32,000 nucleotides of DNA from the NCBI GenBank assembly GCA_048938295.1, contig JBHLMI010000021.1, positions 1-32,000 on the forward strand, in the 5' to 3' direction. The notes below the pieces were generated by a model, which was not told where the DNA came from, searched no databases, and saw only the letters and a program-made list of their open reading frames with translations. Shown one piece after another: positions 22,936 through 24,914 of this stretch. Origin of the DNA: Promethearchaeota archaeon (GTDB taxonomy: Archaea; Asgardarchaeota; Hermodarchaeia; Hermodarchaeales; Hermodarchaeaceae). The first letter of the stretch is position 1, and each line of letters opens with the position of its first letter. A program made the position numbers and the translations under genes.

Positions 22936-23423
22936 TTACGAAGCTGTATGAGATAGCGTATAGCTTCGCCGACGAATTAGGGCTAGCCCAATTACTCCTA
23001 GCAGCCCGATGGCAATGGCTGCTAGCGGAAAGCCCAGAATAGCAGGTGGTGGTTGGGTTTGTAATCCGCCACAGAGGAGACGGTAATTTGACGTCTGATT
23101 TGACCCGAGATACTACAGATTGCTATAACTTGGAGGATGTCATCGTCTTCCGCATATATGTTGAATGTGTCCGTCATCGACGAGGTCGAAGCTTGACTTG
23201 TATAGGTGTGGTTCATGGCAAAGACACCATTTTTGTTAATGATGATTTCCTCAATATAGGGGGTGTCTGCCACTGAATGAAATATAGTAACTGTAAGAAT
23301 TTAGTTGTCGTAGTCATAACTGAGCGTCATATTTGAAGAGGCATGAGCTGGAACTGGAGTGATGCAAAATAAGAATAAGGTAATGGTGCAAAGAATACCT
23401 AACAGGAGAAGCGATTTTCTTAT
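22936..23423 (-). pseudogene. Inactivated secreted surface-protein gene with PGF-like C-terminal tail
   Basis: Reconstructed: (ATA for M)RKSLLLLGILCTITLFLFCITPVPAHA signal peptide; in-frame TAA at 23301-23303; body ILTVTIFHSVADTPYIEEII..AICSISG; 1-bp frameshift near 23071; tail QPPPAILGFPLAAIAIGLLGVIGLALIRRRS; stop at 22936. Confidence 0.85.
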
Positions 23424-23601
23424 TGAGTAATTGCTTCCAATAAGACTTGATTATTCTTGACTTCTCCTGTTAAGAACCTTGAGGTTACCGATAGCAGTAA
23501 TTTACTATTATCGTTTGATTCTGTGATTTATCTAAATCAATCACAGAATATGGGTGTAACCCTACACCCTCTATCCCGTCTACCGATGAGGCTTTCGGGA
23601 C
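23400..23601. other. Block of consecutive inverted repeats (candidate structured RNA or DNA hairpin element)
   Basis: Stems: 23400-23411/23461-23472 (12 bp, perfect) enclosing 23418-23425/23438-23445 (8 bp); 23475-23486; 23489-23513; 23518-23549; 23552-23569; 23574-23600. Confidence 0.6.
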
Positions 23602-23631
23602 TGCTTCCATCAATTGGGTTTCAAAAATAAG

Positions 23632-23639
23632 TATATAAA
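23632..23639. promoter_or_regulatory. TATA box (TATATAAA on +, TTTATATA on -), potentially bidirectional
   Basis: Lies 50 nt upstream of ATG 23689 and ~30 nt from the end of the hairpin block. Confidence 0.6.
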
Positions 23640-23688
23640 GTCACTATTTTTTTGTCTTACTAGTGAAATGTCTTGATGGAGGGTTACT

Positions 23689-24054
23689 ATGCGATTACGT
23701 ACGCCTCAATGGATTCAGCTAGAAGAAGTTGTGTTTGAGAATCCTGGAGATGAGATTTCTGGGTTAGTGATTGGAAAATTATTCCGGAAGGCACGGTTCG
23801 GGGAAATCCCCGTTTTTCTCCTCTACGATGTCGAAAAAAGCCGCATAATCGCTATTCAGGCGTGGGCGAAGATGCTGCGGAATTATCTTCAGGGTGGTTC
23901 GGGTCGAACAGGCGTACGGATGGGCGAATACATCACCATCACTTACCAAGGACGGAAGGCCAAGAAAAAACCGCCTGGAACATTTTATCATGTGTTTCGT
24001 CGAACGAGGAGCCATTATATTTCTAAACAGTATACATATCCCGAGAAAAAGTGA
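23689..24054 (+). CDS. Small basic protein, virus/plasmid-type OB-fold ssDNA-binding-like (tentative)
   Basis: FENPGDEISG...GEIPVFLL...W.KML...G.YITITYQG.K....Y.VF pattern; GGAGG before ATG. Confidence 0.5.
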   Translation: MRLRTPQWIQLEEVVFENPGDEISGLVIGKLFRKARFGEIPVFLLYDVEKSRIIAIQAWAKMLRNYLQGGSGRTGVRMGEYITITYQGRKAKKKPPGTFYHVFRRTRSHYISKQYTYPEKK

Positions 24055-24080: not shown

Positions 24081-24914
24081 TTGGTTATGGTTGTAAAATG
24101 GGACGGACGAAACGAAGAGTTTGATCCAAGTAAAATCGTTCGAACGTTGACTCGAATGGGAGCGCCTCAAAACGTTGCGGAAGAGATAGCAGATGACCTG
24201 GAAGACCACATTGAGGAGGGGATGACGACCAAGGAAATCTATGACATGGCAGTGACTGAACTTGAAACCCATAAAGAGGTCGTAGAATTTCGTCGCGATC
24301 TTCGCGATGGGCTAGCACGGATTGGCAGCGGCTTTATCTTCGAAGATTACGTACGCTTGCTCCTCGAAGAATACGGATATAAAGTGTCAGGAAATGTGGT
24401 AATTCAGGGGGCGTGCGTTAACCACGAAATCGACAGCATCGCGGAAAGAAACGGGGAAACCGTGTATGTGGAAATGAAACACCACAGCGTGTTGGAGCGG
24501 TACACCCCCTTCGAAGTGACATTAGCGGCAAAGGCAAAATGGGACGATTTGCAGGCCGGTTGTGACCAAGGATTAAATGATTGTAAATTTGACCGAGTTC
24601 TCATTGTGACGAATACGCGATTAACCCAACATGCTCAACGCTACGCCGAGTGTGTGGGAATGGAGCACTTTGGTTGGAACTCACCACGCGGTCGTGGGAT
24701 CGAGTGGTTCATCGAAAACAAGAAACTGTATCCTATAACGATTTTGAGAACAATGAACGATGAAGAAAGGGATCAGTTGTATTCTCACAACATCCTAACA
24801 CTTCGACAATTAGTCAATGCAGATCCAAAATCAGCGGGATTGTCGGAAAAACGTGTTAAAGAGCTGATTGATGAGACGCATCGTGTCTTTACTTGTTGCC
24901 AAGCAGATTCGTAG
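24081..24914 (+). CDS. ATP-cone domain + Mrr-like PD-(D/E)xK endonuclease + C-terminal helical domain
   Basis: VVKWDGRNEEFDPSKI.RTL.RMGA ATP-cone; G..FE.YV..LLEEYGY, HEIDSIAE...VYVEMKHH nuclease motifs; AGGTGA upstream. Confidence 0.8.
   Translation: MVMVVKWDGRNEEFDPSKIVRTLTRMGAPQNVAEEIADDLEDHIEEGMTTKEIYDMAVTELETHKEVVEFRRDLRDGLARIGSGFIFEDYVRLLLEEYGYKVSGNVVIQGACVNHEIDSIAERNGETVYVEMKHHSVLERYTPFEVTLAAKAKWDDLQAGCDQGLNDCKFDRVLIVTNTRLTQHAQRYAECVGMEHFGWNSPRGRGIEWFIENKKLYPITILRTMNDEERDQLYSHNILTLRQLVNADPKSAGLSEKRVKELIDETHRVFTCCQADS

Follow-up and report, generated by a model that had tools for sequence, protein, structure and literature searches.

The analysed stretch, 32,000 nt of Promethearchaeota archaeon DNA (contig JBHLMI010000021.1, positions 1 to 32,000; hereafter the window), contains an intergenic block of six back-to-back inverted repeats between a dead secreted-protein gene and a gene for a 121-aa protein. 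This raises the question of whether so structured a stretch is an RNA serving its neighbours or the remains of something mobile; the initial annotation had proposed either an undescribed archaeal non-coding RNA (ncRNA) or regulatory leader, or the hairpin end or origin of a vanished mobile element. Our analysis indicates that the block is a composite of two unrelated parts, a derivative of a TnpB-encoding element and a separate palindrome (stem 1). The former is very probably a 153-nt protein-less derivative of a tnpB-only element of the IS200/IS605 family, which came to lie beside an unrelated, lineage-specific stem 1. Elements of this kind are already known, and the window provides a new example of one, not a new riboswitch.

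No other 200-nt stretch of the window is as structured, on either strand, as the block (23395–23610). Its folding energy corresponded to z = -6.1 (plus strand) and z = -6.3 (minus strand), and all 200 dinucleotide shuffles folded less well on either strand (0/200). A 200-nt sliding scan of the whole window ranked the block first after adjustment for GC content, with residual z of about -3.8 and -4.2 on the two strands, so the initial impression that no comparable density occurs elsewhere was correct. The minus strand of the block folds better than the plus strand. All six inverted repeats were found where they had first been placed: stem 1, with 12-bp perfect arms (23400–23411/23461–23472) enclosing an 8-bp pair (23418–23425/23438–23445); stem 2 (AACCT..AGGTT, 23475–23486); stem 3, an imperfect 12-bp stem (23489–23513); stem 4, with 14-nt arms (23518–23531/23536–23549); stem 5 (GGGTGTA..TACACCC, 23552–23569); and stem 6 (TCCCG..CGGGA, 23574–23600). 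Each of the two parts is strongly structured by itself, with z = -5.9 for the transposon half (23484–23607, minus strand) and z = -6.3 for the stem 1 half (23396–23476, minus strand). Over 23396–23689 and 23470–23789, contigs assembled from further samples of the study, and from another study, showed zero differences. As these are identical independent contigs, the arrangement is real DNA and not an assembly artefact; no assembled DNA contig skipped the element by a joint, noting that contigs cannot show absence. Rfam 15 gave no match at the gathering threshold across the whole window, and relaxing the limit to E = 10 for 23000–24000 returned only a chance small nucleolar RNA (E = 9.9). ARAGORN detected no tRNA or transfer-messenger RNA (tmRNA).

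The identity of the larger part became apparent from searches of the window's own genome (G000; a 91.6 % complete assembly of 2.5 Mb). Using 23380–23620 as query, two other places matched 23540–23606 at 85–86 % identity. Both of them, on contigs C33 and C35, are the 3' ends of 390–410-aa open reading frames (ORFs) carrying OrfB_IS605 and Cas12f1-like_TNB domains (Pfam), and these ORFs are therefore tnpB genes; the closest solved relatives of the encoded proteins are of the Cas12f/OrfB type. In the reverse direction, tblastn with full-length TnpB matched residues 367–388 in the window, corresponding to the last 22 tnpB codons (23542–23607, minus strand), which read AVPKASSVDGIEGVGLHPYSVI. No tnpB sequence beyond these 22 C-terminal codons was found in the window. 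The approximately 60 nt that follow the codons align with the post-stop sequence of full-length copies, and a hidden Markov model (HMM) built from 10 full-length 3' regions matched the module with E = 5.3e-28. A 132-position module HMM from which the window copy had been left out matched 23606–23483 over model positions 2–132 (E = 2.3e-26). The conserved 3' module (23483–23606, minus strand, the sense used for all module and unit coordinates) thus comprises the last 22 tnpB codons and a post-stop right end finishing in GGTAACC, and holds stems 3–6 together with the AACCT half of stem 2. Outside its coding part the module is only 75–80 % identical to the own-genome copies. On this homology, we assign the module to an IS200/IS605-family element of the IS1341 type (tnpB only). 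BLAST recovered three own-genome copies and, across the genus, dozens of them, favouring the recasting as a miniature inverted-repeat transposable element (MITE)-like sequence that the initial annotation had tied to dispersed copies. Its vanished-element reading is upheld for two thirds of the block, namely the right-end module at 23483–23606; no evidence was found for an origin or hairpin telomere, and stem 1 lies outside the element. Five further tnpB-like ORFs in G000 (contigs C6, C2, C19 and C33) are approximately 25 % identical to the C33 TnpB and represent other TnpB families, with right ends unlike the window module.

Full-length relatives allowed the ends of the element to be placed. 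The family is abundant in the genus, with at least nine copies in one genome (G006). The C35 copy is a 1436-bp insertion that is missing at orthologous sites of four genomes (G001, G014, G012 and G003), with exact junctions of TGTA|IS|T and no target duplication, and the flank of the C33 copy as seen in its empty site starts directly after the terminal AACC. We therefore placed the right end at AACC, given that two copies have empty or flank-matching sites there. Ends first put at AACCT (right) and CCACTTATC (left) were abandoned, as the empty sites show that the insertion sequence (IS) ends in AACC and that its left end lies approximately 115 nt further out. A recurrent T-N(1-3)-AGGTYC after the right end was likewise considered as an extension of the element and rejected: the C33 flank matches the empty site right after AACC, making the motif a property of the target. 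The base 3' of the terminal AACC is T in 21/21 copies, and in about half of these it is followed by N(1-3)-AGGT(Y)C, a complement to the terminal AACCT of the element; empty sites identify this motif as flank. The family seems to prefer targets able to pair with its own right end, and stem 2 of the window is such a pairing of the element's last bases with the flank. The own genome, at 91.6 % completeness, yielded no Y1 transposase (PF01797), and a single one (G013:C208) was found across the 15 genus genomes. Canonical gene-less derivatives retaining both a left end and a right end (LE+RE) do exist in the family (L017–L020, L022 and L027, in G006 and G005). These six have one common deletion junction approximately 10 nt upstream of the module start, and L017 adjoins what appears by eye to be the 3' part of a tRNA (T-arm) on the opposite strand. 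The C33 tnpB copy (G000:C33:121912–123081) overruns its contig end and its first 25 codons reappear at C56:3–77; contigs C33 and C56 probably join inside the IS.

No left end is recognizable at the window unit, where the right-end hairpins are present and the left-end hairpin is not. The extent of the unit was instead read from a sister copy in another species (G009:C87), whose neighbours are unlike those of the window. The sister copy has the same approximately 30 nt 5' of the module, and BLAST extends through this segment (23607–23635, minus strand; 29 nt in the window), which is common only to these two copies. Orthologues of the sister copy's neighbours are found on own-genome contig C16, at a site that lacks the insertion, and six further genus genomes lack it too. 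These seven empty sites establish that in the sister copy the approximately 30-nt 5' piece belongs to the insertion, with junctions CTTA|unit|T and a unit end of AACC. They also contradict the candidate reading of the window's TATA region as an ancestral promoter, with the likeness to G009:C87 put down to chance or shared descent of the locus. By homology with the sister copy, the window unit would extend from 23635 to 23483 (153 nt) as TTTA|unit|T, with TTTA (23636–23639, minus strand) as an insertion-site motif resembling a transposon-associated motif (TAM). Together with the element's first bases, TATA, this motif forms the TTTATATA box at 23639–23632. A TATA box had been annotated here on the minus strand; the octamer is present, but it is explained as insertion motif plus the unit's first four bases, and stands where the TATA box of the 121-aa gene is expected. 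Read on the plus strand it is TATATAAA (23632–23639), 49 nt before the ATG of the 121-aa gene, and relatives have TTAATAAG 42 nt upstream of the same ATG. We also considered the 29-nt piece as a stub of the left end and do not claim this, its local alignment scores against five left-end starts being no better than those of shuffles. The unit in this form, a 5' piece plus module with no left end (LE-less), was found as one copy in the own genome and one sister in the order, and the metagenome collection contained no sequence matching a pattern specific to the junction of 5' piece and module start. An exact match of 16 nt to the 5' piece (window 23629–23614, minus strand) was noted at G000:C33:93587–93602 (E = 0.026). 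The sister locus (L016) carries a second insertion of approximately 245 nt (G009:C87 1677–1920), which is absent from the seven empty sites and starts 16 nt after the right end, at the end of the guide slot described below. It opens with a GC-rich hairpin and a T run, and holds a partial duplicate of downstream sequence.

The point at which the derivatives begin is not arbitrary. We built an HMM of 435 positions from the last 300 nt of tnpB and the right end of 10 full-length copies, and every tnpB-less copy in the genus (six LE+RE derivatives and three LE-less copies including the window) starts at model positions 290–301. At the same point, at AAAGCAG, column identity in the 10 full-length copies jumps from approximately 0.65 to approximately 0.95, and identity at third codon positions rises from 0.4–0.5 to 0.8–0.9; since the jump includes third codon positions, non-coding constraint begins at the module start. 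The hairpins are part of what is conserved. When the window's four hairpins were mapped on to 21 copies (the structure being taken from the window copy), 88.6 % of cells were paired, compared to 35–45 % with the pairing partners slid. In 12 pairs, most of them in stems 4 and 3, both partners had changed, and only 0–3 of 500 shuffles reached the observed values, so compensatory change, a check proposed at the outset, is evident within stems kept across the copies. Stem 3 (23489–23513), the subterminal right-end hairpin, had six of 10 pairs changed on both sides and 81 % of cells paired, whilst stem 4 (23518–23549), which spans the former tnpB stop codon, had five of nine; a 4-nt deletion in stem 4 is common to the window copy and G009:C87. 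Stems 6 and 5 sit in coding sequence and are nearly invariant, the former a GUCCCG...CGGGAU hairpin at the module start (23574–23600, 96 % paired) and the latter a GGGUGU(R)-loop-(Y)ACACCC hairpin in the C-terminal codons (23552–23569, 97 % paired). G.U pairs fall on the tnpB-sense strand.

In ISDra2, the right-end element RNA (reRNA) is approximately 150 nt long and derives from the 3' end of tnpB and the right end, with its last approximately 16 nt supplied by the flank (PMC8612924). By analogy with that architecture, the window module would be the scaffold of a TnpB guide RNA (omegaRNA/reRNA), and the putative guide would be the next 16 nt of flank directly 3' of the right end (23467–23482, minus strand), a position set by the right-end boundary and including AGGTT, the second half of stem 2. 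A search of the own genome for a second target of this putative guide gave only chance-level matches, none beside a plausible motif.

The surroundings of the block suggest what an insertion here might have done. The secreted-protein gene (22951–23423, minus strand), with a PGF-CTERM-like tail, is a pseudogene, as was first proposed: tblastn with intact orthologues from G010, G014 and G008 (61–71 % identity) revealed a start codon changed to ATA (23423–23421), a Gln codon turned into a stop, the loss of two codons, a frameshift near 23071 and LGF in place of PGF. The former start codon is indeed buried in stem 1, within an arm of its inner hairpin. On the other side, the 121-aa gene (23689–24054, plus strand) matches no Pfam family and is kept in 10/14 genus genomes, and its TATA-like TATATAAA is now partly element sequence. 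In five genomes (G014, G010, G008, G003 and G007) the two genes are divergent with a spacer of 70–100 nt, and the hairpin block is absent; as these syntenic loci do without it, the block is not a conserved leader. We infer that the insertion split a shared promoter and may have been followed by decay of the secreted-protein gene. Under this scenario, the unit would have landed 3' of a TTTA motif, within the short region of divergent promoters, moving the TATA region of the secreted-protein gene approximately 150 nt from the 121-aa side. That gene, left without a good promoter, would then have decayed, whilst the junction of TTTA and TATA... would have recreated a TATA box for the 121-aa gene. 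The secreted PGF-CTERM-like gene (L049, L053 and L056) is dispensable in the genus, being intact in G014, G010, G008 and G013 and absent from the locus in G012, G005 and G006. The 121-aa gene is always followed by a nuclease gene with ATP-cone, Mrr_cat and AF1548-like_C domains (window 24081–24914), and the genes upstream of this pair differ between species.

Stem 1 (23400–23472) is distinct from the rest of the block. It is a 12-bp perfect palindrome, extended to 15 bp with G.U pairs on the minus strand, enclosing an 8-bp hairpin. Its left arm corresponds to codons 4–8 of the dead gene, within the signal peptide, its loop to the former ribosome-binding site and start, and its right arm lies at the ancestral TATA region. 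The loop aligns with the ancestral spacer of relatives, which have no such complementarity, and neither stem 1 nor the 5' flank had another copy in the own genome or in 40 relatives. The own genome contains 13 perfect inverted repeats of at least 12 bp with loops of at most 60 nt, which is near the chance expectation, and the others share nothing with stem 1. Stem 1 is thus lineage-specific and lies outside the mobile element; candidate origins are chance, templated (quasi-palindrome) mutation in neutral DNA, and repair after a break.

Several observations weigh against the interpretation of the block as a transposon derivative beside an unrelated palindrome, or against parts of it. No close relative provides an empty site at the window locus (the assembly of the nearest genome, G001, does not contain the region), the 5' boundary at 23635 rests on homology to the sister copy, and an alternative alignment makes AATAAGTAT (23625–23633) ancestral promoter sequence. 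The arrival of a unit with no left-end hairpin at two loci in two species is not accounted for by this reading. Chance is unlikely to place a palindrome as strong as stem 1 (z = -6.3 alone) 10 nt from the element; given 13 such repeats in 2.5 Mb, a post hoc estimate is approximately 1e-3 for one within 100 nt. The omegaRNA assignment rests on position, conservation and literature, and DNA hairpins recognized by TnpA would give the same signal of pairing and covariation. Lastly, the module survives in full with none of its four family hairpins broken, as would also be expected of an RNA still in use.

This last point bears on whether the unit is a relic or a working orphan guide-RNA gene. In the latter case, TTTATATA (23639–23632) would start a minus-strand RNA approximately 25 nt downstream (at about 23606–23609, where the scaffold begins) comprising the scaffold and the 16-nt guide, with stem 1 and a T-rich run helping termination, and the RNA would be bound in trans by TnpB from C33 or C35. 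What has been kept corresponds exactly to the conserved module, with every helix intact, and intact-looking tnpB genes are present in the own genome. In the sister copy an identical box stands 25 nt before the module, and a GC-rich hairpin and T run follow the guide position; a third LE-less copy (G009:C22) has TTTAAATA 25 nt before its module. There is also precedent, in that palindrome-associated transposable elements (PATEs) keeping omegaRNAs for use in trans have been described (preprint 10.1101/2023.03.14.532601), and archaeal sense-overlapping RNAs (sotRNAs) with hairpins resembling the right end, including intergenic PATE-derived ones, are expressed in Halobacterium (PMC4615843). Sequence conservation argues in the other direction: at 78 highly conserved columns the window copy departs at six and the other three LE-less copies at 7–11, compared to 0–5 for tnpB-linked copies and 0–4 for gene-less LE+RE copies, so that the LE-less solo copies, the window included, depart most (6–11), suggestive of relaxed constraint. 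The TATA box is explicable without function, as TAM plus first element bases, and sits where the 121-aa gene needs one; the A-rich bases upstream of it favour, by eye, the plus direction. The 75–80 % identity to own-genome copies outside the coding part makes cognate binding uncertain, the guide has no second genomic target, and a copy that cannot be excised gains nothing from homing. Nor did the junction-specific pattern reveal further copies in the metagenome collection. On balance, we consider a working guide-RNA gene unlikely. The window copy is most likely immobile and slowly decaying, because tnpB and a recognizable left end are gone and no Y1 transposase was found in its own genome.

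A more speculative extension would treat such a unit as mobile in its own right. A unit of approximately 155 nt, consisting only of the 5' piece and complete scaffold, might create its own TATA box 25 nt before the scaffold whenever it lands beside (T/G)TA, and so behave in Asgard archaea as a self-promoting, protein-less guide-RNA gene that uses TnpB and transposase in trans, with break repair at the guide position leaving scars such as stem 1. We hold this combination to be quite improbable.

Scarring can also be considered by itself, as an account of stem 1 that ties it to the element: a break near the guide position would have been repaired by fold-back or template switching that copied signal-peptide codons in inverted orientation. 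The non-coding arm of stem 1 starts 9 nt past the right end, where TnpB-omegaRNA would be expected to cut an emptied donor site (a position inferred from PMC8612924). The lack of complementarity in relatives agrees with such an event, as do the ATG-to-ATA change, which improves the inner hairpin, and the extra approximately 245-nt insertion of the sister copy, which begins 16 nt after the right end. Against this, much of the arm region, like the loop, is alignable to the ancestral spacer of relatives, a clean inverted duplication is not visible, and the 13 repeats genome-wide are close to chance. We therefore regard a repair scar as a doubtful explanation of stem 1, which we continue to treat as unrelated to the element. 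The remaining proposal, that the block is a host-encoded structured RNA (a riboswitch, attenuator or new ncRNA family) for the neighbouring genes, draws on its very strong folding on both strands and its intergenic position beside a TATA-like box, but is extremely improbable given that the block is absent at every syntenic locus with intact neighbours (five genus genomes), including those with an intact downstream gene, that two thirds of it is transposon sequence also found at unrelated loci, that Rfam is blank even at E = 10 with no tRNA or tmRNA detected, and that the gene to be led is dead.

Beyond the genus, a 25-nt motif around stem 5 was present in 96 metagenome contigs, of which 80 were examined at the motif locus. 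Approximately 15 of these 80 loci had no TnpB homology upstream of the module. Four of the 15 appear to be G006 LE+RE copies already counted, and the others are more divergent subfamilies in which TnpB is possibly too diverged for the query. Among the metagenome loci, L131, L148, L153 and L168 form a distant subfamily whose likeness to the window module is limited to stems 6–5; upstream, this subfamily carries a conserved and hairpin-rich segment of its own, approximately 100 nt long, and no TnpB homology was found with the query used.

In sum, the main value of these results is one of correction, whereby the most structured non-coding stretch of the window is transposon debris and not a new regulatory RNA. 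The locus also offers a clean natural example, from an Asgard genome, of tnpB-less derivatives that keep exactly the conserved guide-RNA/right-end module, the 5' boundary of which is revealed by a jump in conservation at synonymous sites. Insertion into a bidirectional promoter of 70–100 nt coincides here with loss of one adjacent gene to decay, the other still having a TATA box. Should the orphan module prove to be transcribed and to be loaded into TnpB, it would strengthen the case that the guide RNAs and nucleases of these elements can be exchanged.

The arrangement has clear parallels in characterized systems. In ISDra2 of Deinococcus radiodurans (PMC8612924) and the IS1341-type sotRNAs of Halobacterium salinarum (PMC4615843), the RNA region likewise lies at the tnpB 3' end, where it takes in the last codons and extends as far as the right-end boundary. 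The window module shares the stable, conserved hairpins of these regions, and its approximately 124 nt plus 16 nt of flank are close to the approximately 150 nt of the ISDra2 reRNA. The family also inserts beside a short motif with no target duplication, as do ISDra2-type elements, although the motif here is (G/T)TA then T as opposed to TTGAT or TTTAA. Unlike ISDra2 and the sotRNAs, the window module has no attached tnpB, and its sequence is unrelated to the described bacterial and haloarchaeal RNAs, with Rfam blank. PATEs, which are MITE-like derivatives of IS200/IS605 and often retain the omegaRNA (preprint 10.1101/2023.03.14.532601; PMC4615843), have both ends and several dispersed copies, whereas the window unit has no recognizable left end or left-end hairpin, just the 29-nt 5' piece, and is represented by one own-genome copy and one sister, the true LE+RE copies being those of G005 and G006. 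Like PATEs, however, the window unit is short, protein-less and intergenic, belongs to the same IS family, and keeps the right end together with the RNA module.

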